From: Cirrosporium novae-zelandiae | Taxonomy: Eukaryota | Assembly: GCA_026023565.1 (NCBI GenBank) | Contig: JAPETS010000016.1 | Location: 620,001 to 665,504 of the forward strand | Direction: 5' to 3' | DNA: 45,504 nt | Part shown: one piece after another, positions 27,511 to 45,207 of the stretch | How the letters are laid out: every line of letters starts with the position of its first letter | How positions within the stretch are numbered: the stretch's first letter is position 1 | The notes under the pieces: model-generated | The model's database searches: none | Told to the model about the DNA's origin: nothing | Seen by the model: only the letters and a program-made list of their open reading frames with translations | Translations under genes and position numbers: made by a program

Positions 27511-28611
27511 ATGTCTATAGTATCAGATACGGGTAAAACTCGCCTTCAAGCATCTTTGGAGCGGGCTCAAGCTGGTGGTGCTCCTTCTGTGGGACAATGG
27601 ATGGAATTCCCTGGATATACTCTTGCCAGGACTGTTGCTGAGCTGGGTGAAGATGTAAGTAGCTATCTCCAAAGTGATGTAGCCTTATTCTACCCAGGGC
27701 CAATTTAGGCCTAAGCCTGTCTCGAATGAAGGTTGATTGCGTTTCTGATATTGATTCTACAGTGGGTTCTCATAGACTGTGAGCATGGAAATATTTCTGA
27801 CGATTCTATGTATCATTCCTGCAACGCCATTGCTTCTGCAGGCGCTTCTCCGATTGTGAGAATTCCTGCTAGCGAGCCATGGCTCATAAAGCGTGCCTTG
27901 GATTGTGGTGCACATGGAATAATGGTCCCGATGTGTGAAACAAAGGTTCTGGACCCCTTCCCCTTCTCCTTATGCTTTTCACCATTAGTAAACTACCAGG
28001 AAGTATAAAAAAGAGTAGAATTATGATCGACTAAATGAGTGTAGGCACAAGCGGAACTTATAGTCCGAGCAAGCAAGTATCCGCCTCAAGGCATACGGGG
28101 TACAGGAGGATTGTTTGCACCATCGCTCTTCAATCAAACTGGTCCTTCGTATACAAAGACTGCAAATATCAATGTCACAATAATTGTCCAGATTGAAACA
28201 CGTCTCGCCGTGGAGCAATGTGAGGCGATTGCCACTGTTGACGGGATAGACGCGTTGTTCATTGGGCCAAATGATTTGGCAGCTTCGATGGGATATTTTC
28301 CGTTTGATCATCCAAAGATTCCTGAGGTGCAGGAAGCCGCAGCAAGAGTATTGGAGGTGGCAAAAAAAGCTGGAAAGTGGGCGGGACATTTTGCTTTAAG
28401 CGCTGAGATAGGTTCGTGAGCCGTTCCCCATCGATAACTTAGGAGTGGGCTGATGAACGAGGTAGCTGCACAGAGAATCAAACAAGGGTTTGATTTTGTG
28501 AATTGCGGTGCCGATATTGTTGCTATTACTGGGTGGATGAGTGGAGAAATGGGCAAATTGAATAGGCTCTTAGAGGAGGACGAAAAGGATCACAAGGTAG
28601 ATGCATCATGA
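27511..28611 (+). CDS. HpcH/HpaI-family class II aldolase (2-keto-3-deoxy sugar-acid aldolase-like), 4 exons
   Basis: Exons 27511-27654, 27763-27945, 28045-28411 and 28466-28611. Motifs: WVLIDCEHG, PIVRIP, IKRALDCGAHGIMVP, YPPQGIRG, VQIET, DALFIGPNDL..SMG. Confidence 0.93.
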
Positions 28612-28675
28612 GAGTCTGGAGATGTTCCGAGTCGTTTGAATAGAAGGCGTTAATTTTTATGGATAAAATGAAAGC

Positions 28676-29993
28676 TTATTCTTGGTTCATAACAACGATC
28701 TTAATATCATTATGGACATTCTGAGCTTTGAATGCCTCGTTCGATCGAGTCAACGGATACGTCGAGGTGATTAGCGGCTCAAGGTTCACCAGCTTACGGT
28801 CAAGCATGTCAATAGCATCAGCGAAACATCCAGGGGTATATCGTACAGTGCCTATGAGAAATGAGAATCAAGTTATATGAATTTGTTGGAATATGCTATG
28901 TAAAGTCAAACTGGGAGTCGTACCTTTGAGATTAAGCTCTTTTGCTGTAACTAGGAACATTGGTACAGAAGATAGAGATGTTCCTAGACCCGCTTGAATG
29001 ACTATTTGAAATGAATGTTAACCAAGTTGAAAATATGGTAAAAGGAAGTTCACTCACTTGTTCCCCCCGGCTTCGTCATCACCACAGCCATTTGCATACA
29101 GGTGTCTGCTCCGCTAGCTTCGATGGCTAGGTCAACCCCAAACCCAAGGCCTTCTTGTTTCACAACATCCTGGACAAAATCTGTAGCAAAGTTCAGAGGT
29201 TCTTGACTGTCTTTGTTGAGAGGGCAAACAATCCCGACATCGGCATAGTATCTCTTCGCAAATTCAACACGTGATTGCTCTATATCAAAGACGATGGTCC
29301 TTTTAACACCGTATGCTTTTGCCACAGCCATGATCAATAAACCTAGAGGGCCGCAACCACTGGAAAGCACAAGTTCAATGAGCACAGAGACCTATCCAAA
29401 TCTGAAGGTCTTCAGACTCACAAGATAGCGACTGTTTGGTGCGCACGCATATTGGCCCGTCGACCAAGTTGGACAGCGATAGCCAGAGGCTGAATGCACC
29501 CTGCTTCCTTCCAGGAAATGTCTTGAGAAATGGGGATGGTCATCCATGATGGACAAACAAAATATCGACATAAGGTACCAGGAGTCGGTTCAAGGCCACA
29601 ATATTTCAGGTTGGCACAGGTGTTGGGGTTCCCTCTCAGGCAGAACTCGCATCTATGCAAGTTAGCTAGCTTTCATCTTTTTAGAGATTTAGTATATAGA
29701 TAATACTTCATGCATGCAAATCCAGGTTCAATGGCCACTCTCTGCCCGATCGATCTATCTTTCACCTCAGAGCCGATTTGCGTAATCTCCCCAGCCGATT
29801 CATGCCCCATTACCAGAGGTTTTTTAATCTTGTCGCTTTTCCAATTGTGATAGTCAGATCCACATATACCAGTTGAAATGACTTTGACTCGGACATCCTC
29901 ATCTCCAAGGGTAGAAATAGCATGTTCCCTTAACTCAACCGTTTCCTTAGCAACCCAAAAGCATGCTAGATTTGACGTGGGCTCTGCTTCCAT
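28676..29993 (-). CDS. Zn-dependent medium-chain dehydrogenase, sorbitol/xylitol/sugar-acid dehydrogenase-like, 5 exons
   Basis: Exons 29993-29707, 29652-29422, 29359-29058, 29001-28924 and 28851-28676. GICGSD, GHE, structural-Zn CMKCEFC...C, Rossmann FGCGPLG, FDIEQSR (acidic residue suggests NAD), GTVRY. Confidence 0.92.
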
Positions 29994-30543
29994 TTTGTCT
30001 GTTTTCCGAGCAAGCAGCGAAATCGAAGGTCGCAGGTTGAAGATGGCCGTTTAGCTAGGGTCCATAAGTAAGCCATAATTATTGCTGGCTGATTCAGCCT
30101 CGATTAATGTGAGGAGAAGGTCTTTGACCAAGGTTGATGGAGAGGGGGAAAGTGAGCTTCGGAGATTCTTCAGACACCACCACCGTTGCAACTCCGCAAC
30201 AGTGCATAGCGACCATCGGAAAAATGTCAGCCCTTGGCTCTTAGCCCTCGTTTATTGCCATGGTTTATGACATCTTTCCATGAACATGCCCATACTCTGC
30301 ATTACCGTCGCAAATCAAATGCGATTTCATCAAAATGAGGACTAGAATCCCCAATAGTCTGTGGGATGATTACATCTAATCCTAGAGCATACAGATAGTC
30401 ACAGTTGTCTGAGTCTGCTCCGATAAATTAACCATCCATTCCGCATTCATTGCGCATTTTTTTCCTTATAATTGTTACAGTTTCTAGCTATTTATTCTCT
30501 TCTGACTCGTTATGGTAATTTAAGTACAAGATAATCTACTGTT

Positions 30544-32163
30544 ATGCTTCCACATTCTACAAAGAAGGAAGACGTTGTTCTCTCAGCAACCGGCGCCGAG
30601 GTGTACCATGAAACAGTTTTTACCTGGACCCAAAAAGACGAGAAATTACTCGTTCGCAAGATTGATTTCCGCATCTTTCCAGTAATGGTTATTCTCTTCA
30701 TCCTTAATTTCATCGATAGGAATAATTTTGCCAATGCTCGTCTCAAAGGCCTTGAGGATGATTTGCACCTTACCAACGTTCAGTATCAAACTTGCATATC
30801 TATTCTTCTCGTAGGATATGTTGGTATGCAAGTCCCATCAAACATGTTCTTGAATTCAATATCTCATCCGAGCTTGTACCTTTGCTGCTGTGCTACTATC
30901 TGGGGTATGATATCTGCTTGCACTGCAGCTACACACAGTGCCACAGGAGCTATACTGTGTCGGTTCTTTCTAGGGGCCGTTGAAGCTGCTCTATTCCCTG
31001 GCACATTACTCTACCTCTCAAGGTGGTATACTCGTAGTGAAATGCAACTACGTGTTACCCTTCTTAATGCAGGCAATCTTCTCGCCCAGGCTTTTGGTAG
31101 CTTAATTGCGGCTGGTGTCTTGTCTGGTATGGAAGGGGTAGGAGGAATCAAAGGGTGGCGCTGGCTTTTCATCATCGAAGGGGTGCTTACGATCGCTTCT
31201 GCCATCATTCTTCAACCTGTTCTTCCCGATTACCCATCGACAACTCGTTGGCTATCGCAGAAGGAACGGCTTATTGCGCAGAAGCGTTTGGTTAACGATG
31301 TTGGGATTGCAGATGATGACGAGGAAACTTTGGCATTCTCCGGCTTGAAGATGGCTTGCAACGATCCTATAGTTTGGGTCCTGGGGTAAAGATGTCGCCT
31401 AATAAGAATATAGGAATCAAGGATTTGCTGATGTTAAGCTAGAGTTACGTACTTCCTTACAATCATGGGACTGTCGTTCAGTCTCTTTTTCCCAACAATC
31501 ACGGAAGCCTTGGGATTTGATACAACCACGACGCTTCTTCTCAATGCACCACCTTGGATCTGGGCCCTCTGTGTCTCTCTTCCTAATGCATGGCATGCTG
31601 ATAGGACGGGGGAACGATATTTTCATTACCTGTGGCCGGCAGTTGCATGCATGGTCGGCTATCTTATCTCTGGCACCGTACATTCCGTGGGACCGCGTTA
31701 CTTTGCCTGCTTTTTGATGACAAGTATGTGCCTCCTTTATTAACCATAACTTTCCTAGTACTTACGATGATATCAAGCTGGTTATGCTAGTGGCTTTGTT
31801 ATTCTAGCTTGGATATCAAATACCATATATCGTCCGACATCTAAACGTGCCGCTGCCATTGGGATTATCAACGCTATGGGCAATATAGGAAGTATCCCTG
31901 GCTCTTATATCTGGACTACTGAATGGGGTCCTTATTATTCAAACTCATTCTGGATCGTTTTTGCTATACTTGGGTCAGGATGCATTCTCGCATTTGGCCT
32001 CCGTCAATATCTTATTTGGTTGAACAGAAAGTTGGATCAGAAAGAGAGGGCGATTATTGGAATTAGTGAAGCTGGACTAAAAAACACCACAGCCTTGAAC
32101 AGCAGCAGCAGATTCACCGAAGAGACTGCGAAGCCGATGGAGAGGTTTAGATACCTTTATTAA
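30544..32163 (+). CDS. MFS transporter, anion:cation symporter (Dal5/Tna1/Fen2-like carboxylate permease) family, 3 exons
   Basis: EKLLVRKIDFRIFP...LNFIDRNN.ANARL.G, RFFLGAVEA, LSRWY.RSE..LR, GWRWLFIIEG, LPDYP.T.RWL. Introns are 31386-31442 and 31724-31777. Confidence 0.93.
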
Positions 32164-35100
32164 GCTGTTATCTCCACGAAGGGATCCTGTTCGCTACTGA
32201 TCCAGATATTATTCCTATTGTTTCTATAAGGTGGAATGATGCTTATTAATGCAACTGACCCATAGAGCGATGTCGACCAAAGGTTCATAAAGGGTAAGTG
32301 GGTGGTATCGCATCTGCAAACAAAGTGCTTACCTCCTCATGCCCAAGGTCAGAAGTAGTATAGTTCCGAGTTATATATCTAAAGTCTTAGAATTAAGTTT
32401 CCTACAAGGTCATGACACAAATTAAGTATCTTGGTTCTTGACGATGACCTGCTCTCTATGAGAATTGAGAGAAAGTAAGTTGCGCCCATCTATGCCGTGT
32501 TTTATAGACAGGTCTCAATATATGCCTCTTCAATCTAGGCAATTACTTCATCCTGAATCTGTCGTTGGTATATTGCTGGGGGCCTTGCTCCCGTGCCTCT
32601 TTGATTTCTACTGTTATCTTTATCGTTGCTGCGACGGGTGCGGTAGTTTAGAAATCTATGGCGACGGCTATAGTTTAGGAACTTGGACACTGTCTAAGTT
32701 GGACAGGGGCGACAGGATTGGCGAGTCAATTTCAGAGCTCAATAGTGGATATTAAGGAACTTGTGTTTCCATGAGCTTTTCACCTTGCTCCTCCTAGTTC
32801 TTTAACAGTGGACACCTTTGGTTGACTTCCCTTGCAAGCTAACTCTGGTGTTAACTAATGTTAGCTTTACTGTAATAACAAGAGAAGTAGAGTATTCGGC
32901 TTCCATTGGACGACCCAAATTAAGGCATTCAATCTTAGGCGTGGTAGATCATATGAGGCTATAGGTGCCTGGTGATAGCTATACTAGGTAATTTTTGATG
33001 CGTTTGAAACGCGTTCTCATGCTCAATCACAGAACGGTGAGATATCATTCCTGGTCATCTTTGGGTAGCGAAAAAATGCAAGCCATGGCCAGGATACATT
33101 CAATATCTGGTCATGAATCACCCGAAATCTTTTTCGTTGTTCTCGTTTCGATTGTTTTGGAACTTGGAGATGAATGACGAAGAATGCTGGTTTAATCAAT
33201 GGACCTATAAGGAACTCCTGCTTGTCTACGGGCAAGATAACTAGCCTCTAGACGAGGAAAATTATCGTTTAATTATACGCCTTTAAGGCTAACGGCGATG
33301 CAACCTGGTGGGCCCTTACTTGAGCTGTGCATGGAGCGGTCTTTGTTATGATATTCATGAATTCGGCTATTTCCAGGCTATTTCCGTGTTCTAAAGCGAC
33401 ACCTCCACTTTACAAGAACATAGTATACAGAGTGTAGTAGATATGTAAACCGGTGATGACTAACTGGAAGTAAAACATTGCAATTATGATTGTGATGGAC
33501 ACATAGGAAGAATATAAACTATCCGGGAAGATTAATTATCTGCAGTCAGAAAGATGGGGTTGTCAAATCCGCACGTGCCGGAGTGTGGAGAAACTCGGAA
33601 GCTACCTAGGCACTCTTTGACACTGTAGATTTAGTTTTGTAGTTATTGCATTGCTGATATTCCCATAATTTAATCATTAACACATTTTCGATCTATCCAG
33701 ACTTGGAATCCCTTTACCTCTCTACTTTGATCAACCGTCTTTGACTTCTGCTCTCAGTGACCTCTTTTGTGTTCGCTTTCCCAACCAAGTCTTGGATCGA
33801 AATACCTTGCTCGCAACCATTCTCGATCTACTAAAGGAACCTATCAGCTACCCTCTTTTGAATATGGAATTGGCAATACCTTTGTTAATTAGTTATGTTG
33901 AAGATCAAACCCTGAATAGGCACAAAATATCAAAATTCCTGCGAAGAGGGGCAATACGAGGGATAGGAACAACGCCAAGGGAGCGCTGGGGACAGCAGAG
34001 AGGTTGCAGCGCCCCTTTAGTCTGATAAGAGCGACTAGAGATGGGAAGTTGATACTACAATTGAAAATCTCGTTGAAGGAAATTTAAAAGAAGACCCACA
34101 AAATTGGTATCATTAGCAATGCTATAAGTCTAAGGCTACAAGACCATGCGGATGGTTGCGACTTTGATAAGCATCTTGTCACCGGTATTATCAAAAATTT
34201 CCTAGGTGACATGTTTATCATTTACTGACCTCTTCTTATCTTACAAGACTACTACTTCTCTGATCAAAAGCTTTCTGAGCCTTTCCTTCATGGTTTCGAA
34301 AGTAAATCGCATGATCCTCTCAATACTGGTATAAAACCACATAGTTGTTTCAGTAACAACTTCTTAAATTTTCTCATTGTGAGATCAACTATAATGCCTA
34401 GAATACCAACCCTCGATATCTCCACGACCGATGGCCTATTCGAGATTACTAGTAATGCATTTGTGAAATGAATGTGCTGTGGAAGACTTTGGCTGGACTG
34501 ATGTTGGCATAGTCCTAAAAAGGTAATAGGTGGCAAGATTTAACACTTAGACGTGTGACTAGGGAACTGCCGACAAAGAAACTAGCACCCAGGACTACCG
34601 TGTACATACTCTATTTAAGGGACGTGTAAACTATATGTCACCACGTATCTATAACGCGGAACGGGATAGCGTCATGCTTCCTAAGCTCATCCGCTGTCTG
34701 GAATGCGTTACCGGTCTTCTTGATGATCCCGGAGTCCCCGTGGTAGTGCCTGGATTTGTTGGGCATGGAAGTGTTCAATATCTCAACCGGATAGTCGGAG
34801 CCGCCTCGGATACAGTGGAGAAGAAGATTGATACTGGTGTGCAATGATTAGCGCTCTTGGGAACCAAACCTAACCTAGTGTTTATGGCATCCCACAAGTG
34901 AGACTGGAACCGACGGCCGCGAGGCCGATCCCATTCAATGGTGGATACAACAGACTAGATCTGGTTGACAACAAGGACAGACGGAAATATTTTTGTGGTT
35001 TGGAGACCAAAAAGGGGGAATTAAAATAGACTAGAGATGAATTCGACTGATAATCCTACAATAACCTGGCTAAAAGTATCCGATTTTTTTTTTCAACTTT

Positions 35101-35460: not shown

Positions 35461-36886
35461 TTAACTTCTCACAATCCTTGCCGCCTCCCCTCCATACCGG
35501 GATGTGGTCATTGAATAGAAGGTGTTGCCAGCTAGCAACACGAGAATCGCATCGACGTATTTCCACTCCTCTAGCGTTAGCTTGTCTTCCACTTTCATCC
35601 GCTCCAGTTCTTTTCGGATCTGATCCTCATTCAACAACTGCAAAGTATATGTCGTAGCTTTTGCATCAGGAATGCTCAAGCCACACGCTCTCCGTACAAC
35701 ATCCACCGCATTGATTAATACTACCGTTTTGCCGGATTCGAAGGCGCGAAGCTCTTTATCAAACGATGCTAGATCATTGACGAGCGATATGTTATCACCA
35801 GCGAGACGGAGGAAGGGGGCCAGCTTCGGGTCGCTTAGGTTAACATCGGACTCGATGGAGAATTTGGAACATGCAAACAACCAGCTACGTTCATTAGTAG
35901 ATGAGATTTGAAGTAATCAAAGGAGATGGAACTCACGCATTTGCAGCATCACCCCATCGATAATCAAGGTATTCTCGTACATTGTCGAACCTTTTTTCGG
36001 GTTGACTATGTAAAATCCAGTCTAGCATGGTATCAATGACATCCTGGCCCCCATTTCCAGCAACCTTATCTGCAGTATGGAATCTCTGGATGATGTTGTC
36101 TATCCGGGCTTGCAGGGGACTTGATTCGGTTGATATGGTTGAACCATCGTGCCTGAGCCGCGAGACGAAATCATCTTGGACGCGTTTCAACTGCCGCCGA
36201 AATTAGTCATGGCGCGAAGGAGCTAATGTTACTGCTACTTACCGCTTCCCCAGGAGCTTCTTCCCATGAATCTAAAATATAGTATTAGTCTGCGATTCAA
36301 GATAACTTTAATCCAGTGTAGCCAACCCCTCCAATTCAGAAGAGATAAGAAAAAATTTCGATGTCCACATACCGTCAAAAATGACAACAAACATGATTCC
36401 GGCCGCTATCAATTGCATACGCTCTTCATTGGCCTGTGGGAAAAGGTTGATGGCAAACTTGATGAACCGCTCTCCTTCTGGCTTCTGGAGATCGCGTCCA
36501 GCAATGCTGGCCAGGGTGCCGCCGCTCGTAAGCTTTGCATCTTTAAAACTTTGGTCATTTGCAAGGAGTTCGCAGAGCTCGGCTGATGCATCTAGTGCTG
36601 CTTTCCAGAACCTGTTGTGGCGAGTTGTGGTCAAACCAGTATGAAATGGTAAATTCGCGGCTTTAGGGTATATGGGAAAGGCATTCTTGTAGGTCTTGTC
36701 ATCTGTCCTGTTCTGGTCGATTGGATTTTCGAAGGTCCAATCTTGCGTGATGAGGAAAGATGACATATCGGGGAGATAATCCCAGGAGAAAATGACTGGG
36801 CAGACTGAACCCTCGTTCTCTGGATCCGCTAACTTGCTCAATTGGAGCTTTTCGAAATGCGACGAAATGCGCCCGTTGGTAGCCAT
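35461..36886 (-). CDS. Class I terpene synthase (aristolochene-synthase-like alpha fold), 4 exons
   Basis: Exons 36886-36373, 36271-36243, 36190-35937 and 35884-35461. Splicing creates the Asp-rich FDDSWEE (DDxxE). Also YLDYR..D, NSE triad NDLASFDKE and C-terminal GN..YS.TTSRY. Confidence 0.9.
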
Positions 36887-38084
36887 ATTGTGCAGATTCT
36901 AATCTTGACAATGGGATACAGCAAGGTTACGGTGAAGAGTATGATCAAACAACATACATTTTCGAACCGTGGGAAGAAGTTGACTATATACTCATACCAT
37001 GCCAGTACTACTTATCGCTCACTCATTGCCAGCGCAACAAGGTTCTTGCGATGTTCCGTGTCTCCATGCCTTCGTCAACGGCCAGGGACGCCAAGCTCAA
37101 AGCCAAATCCCTAAGATAACCATCGGAACGGAGCTGGGCTCAACCCGGCAAGCTTCAGAACGAATGTCGGTCTAGCGTCTAAAACTCATGGCCCTTCACA
37201 CTAACGTAGCAATGGGTCTCGTGCTTAACTTCTTAAGCCTCGTTTCAGAATTCAGGCCAGCTCTGAGCTATTTGAACTACGAGAGTATCCTTGCTTGAAG
37301 CCTCCCATCGAATGATGATAAGACGAGTTCAGCGTAAAAAAATGCAGCTCCAAGATAAGACCGATTTCCTCGAACAGTATATTATATCAAGCGTTAGGAT
37401 ACCTTTCTCTCTCGTCTGTTAAGGCTACTTAACCTAGTAAAGGACGACTGCCGACTTTAACCCGATGACGTGTCGGCCGAGGCCACTAACAAAGTATAAC
37501 GTTGAAATAGACTTCCCACCGTTTACCTGTTCCTTCGAAGCCGGATTTTGACCTTTGCCCTATTTAACCTAACGGAGGCTAAAATATCGTACCCTTTAGA
37601 TTCCATAAGTGTACTGAAGTATACCAGGTTCTTATCAGAGTAGCCCTTGTGACAAATTAGCCGGACCAGCTTAAGCGCTAAACTCTCGGACCTTTGAATT
37701 ATGCGGCTAGCATTAGAAATCTCCAATTGAAGAAAGCGAGGAAAATAAAATCTCATAGTGGAGGATAATGAGGATTGCACGGAATATGGAGCTATCCGGA
37801 CTTCAGGGCCACTATAACCCCAGACAGATGTGAAAATGCTATTACAAACGGTAGGATTCCACGACGACTTAATCGGGGCCTTCATCAATTCAATGATAGG
37901 AATGGCGCCCCACATCCTAACTAAGAACCACCTATATAGGCCACTGAGTGGAGAGGGAGCTTTTATTGATGCCCTGAGACATGCTTGAACAATCGGCAGA
38001 CAACCATAAAGATTGCCTCTTCCAGCAAGTTTTTCACATTTTGCTTTAACAATCCCCAACATTTGACATTAAACTACGATCCAG
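36887..38084. promoter_or_regulatory. Putative bidirectional promoter shared by the two terpene synthase genes
   Basis: About 1.2 kb between head-to-head ATGs, with a TATA-like palindrome CCTATATAGG at 37931-37940. Function inferred from geometry only. Confidence 0.5.
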
Positions 38085-39746
38085 ATGGCTACTACACAGA
38101 TCCGGACGCTCATCTTCGATATCGGTGACGTGCTATGCACTTGGAACCCAAAGACCTCCACCTCGCTACCAGGAAAACTCTTGAAGGAGTTTCGTCTATC
38201 GCCTATCTGGTACGAGTACAATTGTGGCCGCATAGGTGAGGAAGAATGCTACACACGGCTTGCTGCGAGCTTCTCCGTCCCGTACGCTGAGATCGAGGAA
38301 GCATTTTCCCAGGCGCGGAATTCTCAAGCGGGTAATGATGCCATGGTAGCTGCCATCCGGGAGCTCAAGCTTGCACATAAAGATTCTCTTCGCATTTATG
38401 CAATGTCCAACGTCTCAAGGCCGGATTGGGAGATTCTGAAAACCAAGCCTATTGATTGGTCGATTTTTGATCGCGTGTTCACATCAAGCGAAGCTGGAAT
38501 GTCTAAACCTGAACTCCAGTTCTACCGTTATGTCCTCAGAGCTACAGATACTGCCCCACAAGAAGCTGTTTTCGTTGACGACAAGGCGGACAACGTGCTC
38601 GCAGCTCGCTCCCTTGGTATCCACGGTATACAATTTGACAACTCGGCCAATGTCCTTCGTCAGCTACAAAATATACTGGGAAATCCAACACAAAGAGGCA
38701 AGAAGTTTCTCTCCAGTCATGCCCACGAGTTTCATTCCGTCACCGATCAAGGCCATGTAGTCCCAGACAACTTTTCACAACTGCTCATGCTGGAGGCCAC
38801 TGGCAATCCGTAAGTCTTATTTCATTCCTTGAATGGTACTACAGTGGCTAAGGGTACACTCTAGGGATCTTATATCTCTCGAATATCATGAAAAAAGCTG
38901 GAATTACTTTATTGGTGAGTGTAACGCATCATGCTACGACAGCGAGGGTATAAATTGATGTTCAATACAGGAAGCCCATTCGGAACCACCAAGACCTATC
39001 CGGATGATGTCGACACAACTTCGCTCGCATTAATGTTGTTGTCGGTTGATGATAAGGTAGCACATTCAGTTTTGGATGACATGCTAAGACATCTGAGTGC
39101 TGATGGAATTGTCATGGTATGTATTTGGGGATGATGACTGTAAATATATAAGACAAATACTTATGGATAACAGATATACTTTGATGAATCAAGAGCCCGA
39201 ACGGATCCAATCGTGTGCATAAATGTGGTCCGTCTATTTTATCACTATGGACGCGGCAACCAACCAGAATTACAGCCAACCAAGAATTGGATCTGCGAAG
39301 TCTTATTAAATCGTGCATACCTTGAAGGAACTCGCTACTACACCTCCCCGGATGTCTTTTTCTACTTTTTCTCTCGCCTTCTCGAAGAGAACGGTGGTTC
39401 TGACATATACCAAGCCACGGCATCGCTGTTGAAAGAACGTTTGCAGGAACGTGTTGGTGCTAACGGAGACTCCTTGGAGCTTTCGATGCGAATCCTTGCA
39501 TGTTATTCACTTGGTATCAGGGATGAAATGGGTCTGAACAAACTATTATCTTTGCAGTGTGAGGATGGTGGATGGGAGATTGGATGGTTATGCAGATATG
39601 GCAAGACGGGAATGAGGCTTGGCAATAAGGGAGTTGGCACCGCGCTCGCTATTAATGCCTACCAGGCATTACGAGGTAGAGAGAAATCTGTTGCGGATTC
39701 GGACGAGGCTATTTCAATGACTCCACGACGAGAACCCACTCCTTGA
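38085..39746 (+). CDS. HAD-like hydrolase fused to a class II terpene cyclase beta domain (drimane-type sesquiterpene synthase family, AstC/DrtB/AncC-like), 4 exons
   Basis: Exons 38085-38809, 38865-38914, 38971-39116 and 39174-39746. HAD motifs LIFDIGDV, MSN, KP and FVDDKADNV. Cyclase motifs DNFSQLL, WNYF, YPDDVDTTS (DxDTT), YFD..R.R.DP.VC.NV, GTRYY.SPD.F and QCEDGGW (QW motif). Confidence 0.92.
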
Positions 39747-42700
39747 CCAAATTTTAGAGGAAAGAGGATCGACTGATATTGACTGGCAAGCAATGTTATT
39801 ATAGGCTACAATTCCCCGGGAACAAAGGAAGGCATGCAGGAATTTGGTATTGAATTTTTTGAAATCTCCAAGAGCATCTGGTCGAGCTTTTATACAGATA
39901 AAGTACAGATTATTGTTATAAAATATTCTGGTATCATAGTATTGTTGTAGCTGATGTAGAGATGTTTGGCTATGCAGAGCTTCTACAAAAAAAATATTAT
40001 TTGGTAGTAAATCCACTTTGCTTTTTGGGCCTTATGTATTATCATCAACTTTTCTCATAAGGAGCCTAAACCCTCCAGCCTTATGAGAGATTTACAACTT
40101 CTTAGAAAGAGCTTAAGGAGATTCACTAACCAATTATCCAAATCCCCGAAATGAATAAAATCCACTTCAGGGTAGGCGTGGGATCAAAGTCAAAGGATTA
40201 ATCACAAAGGGGTGAGTGGCGCAGTCGTTTATAAACCTTAGGAGCCTCCTGGCCTGTTGCCTTAGGCGCAGCTCGCCTAAACCTGGATCGGCGGACCGAG
40301 GCTGCAAGCTTTCATACCAAATCCTTCCACTTGTTTAAAGTAGCCGTTCTTTGAACGAACCTTGTCGCTGAAAGCTTGTTAGCACTTCAGACTTTCAATA
40401 TCTAACCCTCTTACACCATTCATATAGTCTTTGCACTTATACGTAGTGAAAAGGATATATTATGTGGTTGTGATGTTGACTAACACTTGATCAAACAGAG
40501 GCTTGCCTCCCTTAAAATTAATCCAACTTTACAATGTCATTACAAATCTAAACGTCGAGGCACAGTTTCTAGGAACGCAACTATCTTCAGGATAGTATTT
40601 TGGCTAACGTGAATCCGTTTGCCCGTGAAATGATCTGCCCGCCACAAGTATGTGCACGATGAACCGTTTTAGCATAATGTTTAACAGGCGCTATGTCGCC
40701 GCAAGTCAACTCTATCCATGACCAGACTCTAGCCTGACAGACATATTGCAAACGAAGAAGATGCTTTGGATGATGCTAAGTCATTGGTGTACAGTGATGG
40801 AGAAAATCTGAACCAGCCAAGCGTAACATTTTCCACAGAATTCGTGCTCCTTCAGATGAACTGTGACGAACGGAAGTTTGGTGTTATTGTTTGCATTGGC
40901 ATGTCTCTAACCCATCTTAATGCCTAATATCCTAATCTAAGCTACAGGATGCCTTTATCTTTCTGTTCCTAGTTTCCATTTCATCAAGTATATGTTTCTC
41001 GCGGTGTCTCCATCTGGGTTTCTCGTCCAATAGCCTTATCATATATTATGTACTATAACTGAAAATCTAGGGATTCTTCCATATTGACGTCGGATTCTAC
41101 AAGGGGAACCCAACCTGCGGGCTACGAGTCCATGAGCTACTGGAAATTAAAAAATTATGCGTACACTTTTAATTCGTACCTTGATAAATTTTAAGACATT
41201 TGGACTAACCTACCTAGCTACTCTTATGTTGTACTTGAAGCTAAGCTGACTATTTCCATCCTTGCTGGTACCTCAACAATAATGATAATGATGACATGGA
41301 CGAAAGCGATGGTACACCACCCGAAGATGCACCCGACTGCTGAGCAGCCTTCGAATGAATGTTAACTCTACTGCATTCTCTATGAGTTGAGGCTTTCGAT
41401 GTCATACATTCATGTATGTTTCTAGACTGGAGTTTCCAGGGTTAGATGTGTAGAGAAAATGTCGACTTAATTACAAAGCTCCAGCAAGTGAGAATTACGG
41501 TAAATATGATCAGTGTCCCCAGAAAGAGTGTCGGGATCGGATGGTTCATGAAGGTCAAAGTGATTCTCATCTAGCATTACCGGATTATCTGAACAAAATC
41601 AGATAGAGATTCTCACAACAACACGTTGCTAGGCGAAAAAAGCTTGCCTGGACTGGACCCAAGAATAGTACTAGTGAATTTCGTCAGTTCTTTGTCGGTA
41701 ATGGCTTCCCCAATATTAGGACTTTTGTATACGAGCTTAAACTCTACAACATTGGAATCTCTAGACTGCTGAAGATGATTATCACAAGAAGAGGATTGGT
41801 TGAAAAATAAAAGAATGATAGTTTCGTTGTTATCGCCATCATTATTGTAACCGTGAGCCTGGCTGATAATGTCGATGACCAGTGTTTCTATGTTTGTTAG
41901 ATAAAGGCACCTTGACATAGACAGATTCAAACATACCGGAAACTTCTCTCATGGATATTGAACCCTGGGCTACCCCCCAACAACCAAAGAGGAACATAAG
42001 GAATAGAATAGGGACATCATCTGCATCAGACCCATTTTTCGTAATTCGCCTTGATGGTAGTATTCCGATATTGTCGCCTCGCTATCTACTTCATCACGTC
42101 ACATCTATCATCATTTGCTCGTCCGGTACTTTCTGAGAAGGCATCATAGATTGATTCATTGAGATCGCTTTGTTCGACTATTTTGCTTTTGGATCCAGAG
42201 AGATTCACTCTATCCTCGAAAAATTCGTAATCTCAACTGCATTATCGCCTAGTACTGATTCCTAAGAAGACCCATCCAAGGAATAGTTACAAGCTGGATT
42301 GCTCATCATACGACCGATTTGAGGATTCACGGTTCACTTTTTCCATTTCCACCCTACTAAGTAGACGCTGGAATTTAGAGGTGGATATTTGGATCAGACG
42401 AAGCTCTATAGAGACTGTTTGCTTGCTACGTAGGATTATGGCAAAAATAAAAGTATTCCTGATCCCTATACTGTGGCATTTTTAAGATTGGTCTTCTCGC
42501 ATAGGACTCAGGAGACAGCCTTGTGAGGGTATTAGATAGTACGGAGAGCTTGGCCGTCGGAGACAGAAACAGAACACCAAAAAGACAGATAAACAACAAA
42601 AAAAGGGCATAATGTTTCGTGATATTACAGAGTATGTCTGAAGGTATATCCGAAGACAATTTGGAGAAAACTAGAAAGACGAGAGATACCAAGTGATGAG

Positions 42701-43025
42701 AATGATCGATTTTTATATGCAAGTAGTATTTGTGCAGATAAACCAGTCAGTGTGATTAGCTTGGGTAGACGGGTGGGCTAGTCGAGAAGAGAATTATTAA
42801 TTTTTTAAATATACAACGATAAATATGATGGGATAGGGTCGAAAGATATGGTGGGGCAATTTATGAGAATAGATTGGCTCAGCTGTGGCCTACAGTATCT
42901 ATACCGAGGCTATTAAGGGTACCTTCGGTCTATACGAAAATACTTTGTAGCAACGTAAATAATCCTCCCATTTGAGATCTCATATAATAGCCTATGCAGG
43001 TCAGCTAGCAAAATAATCATTGGCC

Positions 43026-45207
43026 ATGGCGTTCTGTGCAGACTGCCAGAACATCGGAAATGATAATTTTGGCGCTGATTCTAATAGTACCGTCACATTA
43101 AAAAGTACTTTTGAGCATCTTAGACTTTCTGCACATTCTAGTCACTGTGATTGCTGCTCATTTATTTTGTCTGGTTTACTACAAGCGGCCCAAAATGATC
43201 GTGTCGAGGTCAAGAGCTTAGACAAAGACAAAGTGGAATATTATTGGAGAAAAATGACACCAAACGTTGCCAAGGAACGCAATAGTCAAAGGACTTCTCA
43301 TGACGAAATCAATTTAAAGCACCGCTATGTGACTTGCTTGTTGGTAATAACTGGAAATACTCGCGCTGCTTTTGAAGCGGTTGTGCATGATGGTATGTAT
43401 ATATATCTATTTTGGTTTGCCTGAAGTCTGTGAATTGAATCATGTGCTAGATGACCCTGCAATGAATGATGACCGAATAATTGGCCGTCCAGTAGCCAAG
43501 AGAACCGGGGATGAGGAGGCTTTGGAGCACATTAAATTATGGCTTCATGAATGCTGCCAGCATCACATCGAAACGTGTGGTAAAACAGAACTTAAGAAGA
43601 TGCCCACACGGGTTCTTGACCTACGTCCAGACAGCGTAGTCTATCCTGGGAGCCTAAGGCTGTTAGATGATCTTCAAAATCGAAAGGAATATTATGCTAC
43701 ACTAAGCTATTGCTGGGGTAAACCTTCAGAGTCGAATGTTTTCTTCACCACGACAAAAGAGACATACGCTAGCAGAAGGGAAGAAATCGAACTTAAGGAG
43801 CTGCCGAGAGCATTGCAGGATGCAGTCAAGGTCGTCCGATACCTTGGTATCCGTTATCTCTGGGTCGATGCTCTTTGTATCATTCAGCATGATATTGATG
43901 ATTGGGGTCGAGAATCGGTGCAGATGAGTGACATATATGAGAATTCACTATTGACCGTTGCCTCCGCAAGCTCTTCGTCATCAAACGAGTCATTTCTGGA
44001 AAAAGACCGAGGCTTCAGTGATCAACCACGGTTTCATGTTCCACTCAAACATGGGGGAAGCAGTCTTTATTTGCTCTCAATGACAGAGACCCAGGTACTT
44101 GGATTAGGACCATCCTTGTCGGATCACTGGAAGCAACCTCTGCAGGCTCGGGCTTGGACTTTGCAGGAACGATTACTGAGTCATCGAACCATATTTTTTG
44201 ATCGGCTTCAACTTGTTTGGGAATGTCCAATGGGCCAAGCTCTGGAGAGTCGACGACTATTTATCTCGAATTATGTTGGTGCAGACTTTCTTGCGAAATT
44301 CAAGGGAGTAAGAAAGCTTAATGAAGAGGACCTCATGAAAAGTAACAAACCAATGGTCAGTGAGTTCCATATCGATGACTCGATAGTATCCAAACCTGTC
44401 GACTACGCGCAGTGGTACAAGCTTCTGGATAATTATATCTCTCGACAACTTACCGCAATCGACGACGCCTTACCAGCAATATCTGGTCTAGCTGTCCGAT
44501 GGCAGCGTATGACAACAGATATATATCTTGGTGGTATCTGGAAAGGGGATATTCTCAGTGGGCTTCTTTGGAGCTGCTACCCTAACCCCGACCATCTTCC
44601 TCGTCGATCTATATTTGCACCTTCTTGGAGTTGGGCCAACTCAGATAAATTAGGCACAGTTTTCTGTGCTTGTAACGTAGAAGATAGTGAGCTGCAGGTA
44701 CATACAAAGACAGCGCTATTGTTAGATCACCAAACCATACCTAGATTCAACAATGCCAATAACTTCTTTGGCCAACTACAATCAGCAACCCTAACATTCC
44801 AAGGATGGCTGACAAAGGTATGGGCATCCCCGAAGCACGACCCACATGCACCGTACCCTCTCTTAGCATGGAAAATGGATCACCAGCTGAAGTTCAAAGC
44901 ATCAATTGATAATATTGATGATCTTGTGGATCGACTTTATAGTCATGGTGAGGGGGCTAGGGAATCGTTCTATGTCTTCATGCTAGGCATTTGGAGAGAA
45001 AAGACAACGTTCCAACCTCGGACAGATATTTGGGGTCTCGTATTAAAGGAGACGGGAGAAACCCAAGGGCCAACAAATCTAAAGGTCTATAATAGAAAGG
45101 GATGTATAGCCATTAACCTACTACCATATGGAGGATGTGGAATTGAAAGCTTAGATCTCATCGATTTTTGGGGTGATTGGTGGGAGGCAACTATCATGCT
45201 TGCTTAG
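43026..45207 (+). CDS. HET-domain (heterokaryon incompatibility, TOL-like) protein, 2 exons
   Basis: ATG at 43026 (MAFCADCQ...CDCC), intron 43393-43450. Motifs: WLHECCQHH..C, PTRVLDL, YATLSYCWG, LPRALQDAV...LGIRYLWVDALCIIQ..DW..E...M..IY, RAWTLQERLLS, LPAISGLA, YLGGIW, APSWSWA. Confidence 0.95.

Follow-up and report, generated by a model that had tools for sequence, protein, structure and literature searches.

A 45,504-nt window of contig JAPETS010000016.1 from Cirrosporium novae-zelandiae (class Xylobotryomycetes), the whole stretch of DNA analysed here and the frame for all coordinates below, contains two intact terpene cyclase genes that are transcribed divergently from starts lying 1,198 bp apart. 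On the minus strand, 35461..36886 encodes an AaTPS-like class I terpene synthase of 406 amino acids (aa), assigned from its gene model, its NCBI record, a match to the solved structure 6LCC, its predicted fold and Pfam family PF19086. On the plus strand, 38085..39746 encodes a HAD-like class II terpene cyclase of the AstC family (497 aa), assigned from its gene model, its NCBI record and a match to the AstC structure 22TZ. The region between them (36887..38084, delimited by these coordinates) is presumed to serve as a shared bidirectional promoter; its reading frames carry no Pfam match, and its repeats are only short and at chance level.

Each gene has four exons, at 36886-36373, 36271-36243, 36190-35937 and 35884-35461 for the class I enzyme (introns of 101, 52 and 52 nt, no internal stops) and at 38085-38809, 38865-38914, 38971-39116 and 39174-39746 for the class II enzyme (introns of 55, 56 and 57 nt). 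All six introns of the pair are GT-AG, and the first class I intron splits the DDSWE motif. The models equal in length the NCBI proteins M1834_002091 and M1834_002092 of this species, to which the exons used as queries (exon 4 for the class I gene) are 100% identical. Gene models and NCBI records thus bear out an earlier sequence-only reading of the locus, which had described two intact, mechanistically different cyclases diverging from a 1.2-kb spacer. The two proteins are not homologous to each other. No further copies were found in the genome, where each protein, as well as PF19086, matched this locus only (counts that are lower bounds); a TRI5 search of the genome gave no match, and neither did its control.

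Two cyclases from known families

The class I protein carries the motifs of a class I terpene synthase, namely D171DSWE, the metal-binding NSE motif N302DLASFDKE310 (35752..35778, minus strand), the R sensor R259, and R395-Y396; N302, D303, S306, K309 and E310 are invariant in 24 and in 36 aligned sequences. Its structural model (predicted local distance difference test, pLDDT, 78) has the all-alpha isoprenoid synthase fold (Foldseek: 6LCD at E 6.7e-23; aristolochene synthase at a template-modelling score, TM, of 0.6). The closest solved relative is AaTPS of Alternaria alternata (6LCC, E 2.9e-98), with TM of 0.71-0.72 and identity of 43-44% between the model and 6LCD/6LCC. AaTPS converts farnesyl diphosphate (FPP), its sole substrate for cyclisation, into 7-epi-alpha-selinene, and also acts, weakly, as an indole prenyltransferase (PMC7414894; here and below, statements from cited papers refer to the portions of their text available to us).

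The Cirrosporium enzyme resembles AaTPS in its fold with an N-terminal extension, in DDSWE and NDLAS(Y/F)DKE, and at the F146 position, but has DAANAW for the DVAFPY of AaTPS and N147, G163, W239 and W267 where AaTPS has Y, T, F244 and Y272. These four residues are present in 29/29 members of its clade and in 0/9 AaTPS-like proteins. In a quick-method tree of 76 proteins of 330-480 aa, built without six near-duplicate Paecilomyces rows and AaTPS itself, proteins of Botryosphaeriaceae and Apiospora together with unnamed ones form a clade (support 100) to which the enzyme is the sister branch (support 89), and this grouping is separate from the AaTPS-like one. The separate clade, together with a pocket that differs at AaTPS positions Y152, F244 and Y272, shows that the enzyme is not an orthologue of AaTPS, the 7-epi-alpha-selinene synthase; given the clade-specific residues as well, the product or the substrate of the class I enzyme is likely to differ from that of AaTPS.

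Two other roles for this gene were considered and rejected. A chain-elongating prenyltransferase does not fit its motifs, which are DDxxE and NSE rather than two DDxxD, and the indole activity of AaTPS was set aside as a natural role. The sequence-only reading had also allowed for transfer of a terpenyl group to a nucleophile, for which AaTPS provides a precedent, but prenyl transfer by AaTPS is 5000-fold weaker than cyclisation, uses dimethylallyl diphosphate (DMAPP) only, and is common to most class I enzymes tested (PMC7414894).

The class II protein combines an N-terminal HAD phosphatase domain (about aa 1-200; 38085..38684, plus strand) with a class II beta domain, an architecture shared with its closest solved relative, AstC (22TZ, E 1.3e-121), the drim-8-en-11-yl diphosphate synthase of Aspergillus oryzae (PMC13244436). 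Its NCBI record is annotated with PF28380, PF00702 and PF13419. The acid/base motif D271-V-D273-T-T (39006..39020, plus strand) aligns with D271xD273T of AstC, and the likeness extends to N324, the activating catalytic Tyr, and the positions Y363 (AstC Y361), F230, Y256, F257 and R316. The AstC and AaTPS matches and the fold comparison uphold the class I and HAD-class II assignments first made from the sequence.

The phosphatase domain sets the protein apart from AstC, which carries E13, is an inactive phosphatase, and releases allylic drim-8-enyl diphosphate (PMC13244436). The Cirrosporium enzyme has the canonical D12, G14, S108 and D166, and in alignments against AsDMS and AstC, D12, G14, S108, N109, K141, D165 and D166 are all intact and correspond by motif to the residues reported as essential for the AsDMS phosphatase (PMC12365925). 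It therefore does not qualify as an AstC-type diphosphate-releasing cyclase with a degenerate HAD domain, all seven catalytic residues being present; HAD motifs I-IV (D, G, S, N, K, DD) are instead those of cyclase-phosphatases with live motifs, such as AacA (albicanyl monophosphate synthase) and AsDMS (drimenol synthase). As a side observation, four Penicillium and Aspergillus HAD-cyclases (P0079, P0081, P0197 and P0201) combine degenerate phosphatase motifs with the tyrosine Y268 discussed next, and are candidates for diphosphate-releasing enzymes.

The cyclase pocket is a mixture that fits neither AstC nor AacA. In place of the F, F, F, Y and H of AstC, the query carries Y268, Y309, Y362, C447 and R448, and the combination of C447, Y268 and Y256 is unlike that of AstC and AacA, the only two enzymes compared. 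In the proteins whose genes are linked to a class I partner in other fungi (below), C447, in place of the A-ring aromatic Y446 of AstC, occurs in 16/16 sequences against 9/133 other class II proteins, Y256 in 16/16 against 8/133, and Y268 in 15/16 against 20/133. By numbering, Y268 may match Y283 of AncA, which we presume to be half of a monocyclisation gatekeeper; the literature searched contained no mention of Y283. Y268 and C447 together give a hint, from residue patterns, of a non-standard product. The sole exception at Y268 is the Apiospora phragmitis protein KAK8058191.1 (P0177), whose model lacks the DxDTT segment and reads out of frame there. The reading frame seems to shift where two exons meet (the exon 2/3 junction); the gene model may be wrong, or the copy may be broken, although the class I gene next to it looks intact.

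By motifs and trees, each enzyme thus belongs to a known family and is not the orthologue of a characterised enzyme. A search of the ESM Atlas returned family names only, and the tree in the AstC paper includes one uncharacterised A. arundinis HAD-cyclase under another accession (PMC13244436).

Conserved linkage of the pair

The pair is kept across three fungal classes. Orthologues of the two genes have consecutive accessions or locus tags in 12/12 Apiospora and 2/4 Neofusicoccum assemblies (14/16 assemblies with both proteins), and in the other two Neofusicoccum assemblies the numbers differ by 3 and by 9, with the members of each pair on contigs listed at the same length. Such numbers indicate neighbouring genes and not strand, so that the head-to-head arrangement is known in Cirrosporium only. 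Given as class I/class II, the consecutive pairs are KAK8062624/5 in A. hydei; KAK8848562/3, KAK7990513/4, KAK6852077/6, KAK8006989/90 and tags PG987_006188/7 in A. arundinis; KAK8058190/1 in A. phragmitis; KAK7992727/6 and KAK8052940/1 in A. saccharicola; KAK8131745/6 in Apiospora sp. TS-2023a; KAK8018920/1 and KAK7932654/5 in A. marii; KAL1637918/9 in N. ribis; and GME25115/4 in N. parvum. N. parvum also supplies the two more widely spaced pairs, GME58531/28 (a difference of 3) and EOD45492/83 (a difference of 9). The 16 assemblies represent three independent lineages, with most pairs from the single genus Apiospora. Because the pair recurs in other genomes, its adjacency is far beyond chance. 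Linkage of orthologues elsewhere had been set beforehand as the test on which a functional tie could fail, and finding them linked in Apiospora and Neofusicoccum supports such a tie.

The phylogenies of both enzymes, proposed alongside that test, place the linked proteins in matching clades. In a FastTree of 155 HAD-cyclases of at least 420 aa, a single clade of 22 members (support 0.91) holds all linked class II proteins, and by identity to the query these take ranks 1-7, 10-16 and 18 of 154. Class I and class II trees give the same branch order, with Cirrosporium first, then Botryosphaeriaceae, then Apiospora and a sister group, made up of three Helotiales proteins for class II and of three unnamed proteins for class I. 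Pairwise distances for the two enzymes are correlated (rho 0.92, n=14, a value inflated by shared ancestry). Protein identity between lineages is only 55-65% in comparisons with Cirrosporium, which argues that the pair is old.

Among 16 metagenome loci of class I relatives, none gave a HAD-cyclase match; the long ones among them are only distantly related (35-37%), and the single locus from the same clade, L004, spans 1,135 bp, so that linkage within the clade was not probed by this search.

Joint or separate action of the two enzymes

Taken together, the two enzymes probably work towards an uncharacterised sesquiterpene, and the product of one is perhaps handed to the other. The reading we place first, while granting it somewhat less than even chances, is a branched class II-to-class I relay that competes with a live phosphatase, in a conserved two-gene sesquiterpene unit run from a single divergent promoter region. 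The class II domain would protonate FPP via D273 and stop at a still-allylic cyclic diphosphate, most plausibly monocyclofarnesyl diphosphate and otherwise drim-8-en-11-yl diphosphate. This intermediate would then be partitioned: part may be converted to the monophosphate or alcohol by the enzyme's own HAD domain. The class I enzyme, perhaps bound to the cyclase, would ionise the remainder with Mg2+ and may then cyclise it, eliminate or add water to give a second skeleton. The logic would be that of labdane biosynthesis, class II and then class I, at C15 and with a branch.

In the labdane diterpene relay (CPS then KS) and in sodorifen biosynthesis (SodC/SodD), the first enzyme leaves an allylic diphosphate that the class I enzyme ionises. 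The relay inferred here would work in the same way, and would differ in opening with a cyclase that has only a beta domain and carries a fused phosphatase, probably at C15. The allylic requirement narrows the choice of intermediate. Drimenyl and albicanyl diphosphate are homoallylic and cannot be ionised by a class I enzyme, which requires an allylic substrate. A relay through either is rejected, and the class II product in a relay would have to be monocyclic or delta-8. Among the known products of the family, whose range includes monocyclofarnesyl alcohols (AncA, Termitomyces DS3), only two would serve: drim-8-enyl diphosphate is released by AstC (PMC13244436), and monocyclofarnesyl diphosphate is the precursor of the AncA and DS3 alcohols (PMC12001456, PMC10608071, PMC10126200).

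Several observations weigh against a relay. The conserved linkage, the matching trees, the clade-specific pocket residues of both enzymes and the lack of tailoring genes in the Cirrosporium flanks speak for it, but the seven catalytic HAD residues, degenerate in AstC, are intact in 16/16 linked proteins (as well as in 6/6 sister and 112/133 other proteins), so that the phosphatase should be alive and the diphosphate should be removed. The HAD domain is also as conserved as the cyclase domain (64% vs 60% identity to Neofusicoccum), and its invariant residues in the linked set argue that dephosphorylation is still under selection. A live HAD domain argues against survival of an allylic diphosphate, and by analogy with AstC an obligate relay should let that domain decay. 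In AacA, moreover, the intermediate is passed across the dimer to the HAD site (PMC13244436), and the closest characterised class I enzyme, AaTPS, uses FPP alone. Pocket residues point the same way: at AacA positions 253, 306, 357 and 444 the query equals the AacA F444Y variant, which keeps 60% albicanol, a non-allylic product (PMC13244436). The partner is, in addition, not always seen. Six HAD-cyclases with much of the pocket signature, from Helotiales, Diplodia, Phyllosticta and Mariannaea (the genera being Rhynchosporium, Cadophora, Oculimacula, Diplodia, Phyllosticta and Mariannaea), have no class I partner among the matches listed, and the class I clade members of Lasiodiplodia, Macrophomina and Botryosphaeria (B. 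dothidea) have no HAD partner there. These absences are weak evidence, because the searches were not exhaustive and can be shown to overlook close relatives: the one made with exon 4 of the class II gene missed Neofusicoccum and Apiospora proteins found by another, which in turn scored 7,999 candidates and listed 120 of 182 matches. A partner that is not seen is not thereby absent. A last point against is that the query has Y at the position of AstC F360, where we assume AncA to have F.

Published kinetics leave room for competition with the phosphatase. The AacA HAD domain acts on its own diphosphate at 0.015 per uM per s (PMC13244436), about one tenth of the efficiency of AaTPS on FPP (0.14 per uM per s; PMC7414894), and channelling in AsDMS is reported to be relatively modest and to work by proximity (PMC13684600). 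A predicted complex of the two Cirrosporium proteins scored 0.41 against 0.00 for the best of three controls, with at least 67% of contacts shared between runs and a partner pLDDT of 76. In the calibration, 5/78 solved complexes reached the mark at scores of at most 0.60; of 180 mismatches 4 passed, all of them in this score range, and 7/44 blind neighbour pairs passed in a procedure run without alignments; the prediction thus lends weak support, a small nudge towards the relay. The fullest version, which is possible but to our mind rather less than even, has a dedicated, physically associated AaTPS-family class I enzyme capturing monocyclofarnesyl (or drim-8-enyl) diphosphate before the fused phosphatase does, and yielding a skeleton that neither enzyme makes alone. 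Such a unit, shared by Xylobotryomycetes, Botryosphaeriaceae and Apiospora, would be the natural parallel at C15 to labdane biosynthesis.

Nearly tied with the branched relay, and only a little less probable, is the production of two co-regulated compounds in parallel. Here both enzymes would take FPP. The HAD-cyclase would by itself turn it into a cyclic sesquiterpene, as the alcohol or the monophosphate, and the class I enzyme would form a separate hydrocarbon or alcohol. The genes would have stayed linked so that both compounds are made together as a blend, or so that they supply tailoring genes, whether these lie elsewhere or, in other genomes, next to the pair. The live HAD residues of all linked proteins fit this account, as do the full motif sets that equip each enzyme to act alone, the apparently unpaired members on both sides among the matches listed, the stand-alone FPP cyclisation of AaTPS (PMC7414894), and the different products of AncA and AncC within one cluster (PMC12001456, PMC10608071, PMC10126200). 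It accounts less well for adjacency across three classes, matching trees and matched pocket changes, and it does not predict the weak pass of the complex.

Coupling in reverse order or by prenyl transfer is unlikely, although it would suit both the linkage and a live phosphatase as the final step. The class I enzyme would first release a diphosphate, an isomerised or cyclised FPP, for the class II domain to cyclise and the HAD domain to dephosphorylate, or would prenylate the class II alcohol. A class II pocket lacking one aromatic (C447), a changed phosphate-binding loop and the ability of AaTPS to prenylate nucleophiles (PMC7414894) favour it; the class I motifs, which are cyclase-type rather than chain-elongating, and the slow, DMAPP-only and generic character of AaTPS transfer count against it. 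Diphosphate release by cyclase-type class I enzymes is also rare. Least probable of all is the absence of any functional tie, with genes that came to lie side by side a single time and have since travelled together by inheritance or by horizontal transfer of a subtelomeric block. The patchy distribution, the subtelomere-like setting in Cirrosporium, and the origin of most counted pairs in one genus among only three independent lineages would agree with this. The age of the pair, judged from its inter-lineage identities, does not, and neutral adjacency is seldom so long-lived in fungi.

We regard the conserved linkage as a new and solid result, and the relay hypothesis as live and unproven. The literature searched, which covered few of the subscription journals where such chemistry often appears, yielded no account of the gene pair, nor of a C15 relay from class II to class I in a fungus, and the available text of a review of fungal sesquiterpenoids (PMC8705726) mentions neither. 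Similarly, no class I partner is reported in the available portions of the literature on AacA, AsDMS, AncA/AncC, DrtB and DS3, and in the sources consulted fungal HAD-class II cyclases lead to an alcohol or phosphate as end product. Known class II-then-class I relays are mainly C20. A C15 relay, if true, would add a second layer of sesquiterpene scaffolds. For engineering it would provide a class I synthase able to use pre-cyclised C15 diphosphates as substrates, and it would illustrate how a fused phosphatase and a separate partner divide one intermediate between them. If the products are parallel, the pair still represents, in each of the two families, a clade that is uncharacterised and has a remodelled pocket, and that occurs in common endophytes and in fungi associated with plants.

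Genomic surroundings

The statement of the sequence-only reading that no P450, oxidase, acyltransferase, transporter or TF is recognisable within the flanking 3 kb holds narrowly. The nearest recognisable gene on the left, an MFS transporter, ends at 32163, 3.3 kb off, and the nearest on the right, a HET-domain gene at about 43017-45207, is also about 3.3 kb off. No hidden or decayed tailoring genes were found in the flanks and spacer, where 0/61 stop-to-stop frames of at least 45 aa reached the Pfam cut-off and two gave sub-threshold matches (E ~0.03).

The flanks of the Cirrosporium pair, free of tailoring genes, contrast with more distant AaTPS-type loci, which have P450s beside them. An AaTPS-like synthase in a metagenome locus (L015, with L016) has P450 genes on both sides, and a more distant relative (L006) adjoins a P450 and a short-chain dehydrogenase. 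Both are uncharacterised tailoring clusters without a HAD-cyclase. The class I synthase as neighbour also distinguishes the Cirrosporium HAD-cyclase from AstC.

The contig ends 5.8 kb from the locus, and the adjoining repeats also occur near other contig ends. One of them, at 42452-42813, is common to several contigs, and in some of them (C61, C68) lies about 1 kb from where the contig starts; together with the HET gene at 43017-45207 it suggests a subtelomeric setting. An 80-bp dispersed repeat at 34817-34900, with 77-87% identity to at least 19 places on other contigs, is possibly a small transposon remnant. A sequence on G000:C48, overlapping an open reading frame with a terminal Myb-like segment (a label given by eye), has a decayed counterpart of 76% identity at 41505-41950.

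Farther to the left, 28021-32163 holds genes for an HpcH/HpaI aldolase, a zinc alcohol dehydrogenase and the MFS transporter side by side, which probably form a cluster for the catabolism of sugar acids and have no relation to the terpene pair. Elsewhere in the genome, two adjacent prenyltransferase genes and a small membrane-protein gene at about 124400-130300 of G000:C73 (L035, L038), which we take to resemble PaxG, PaxC and PaxB, probably form an indole-diterpene cluster.

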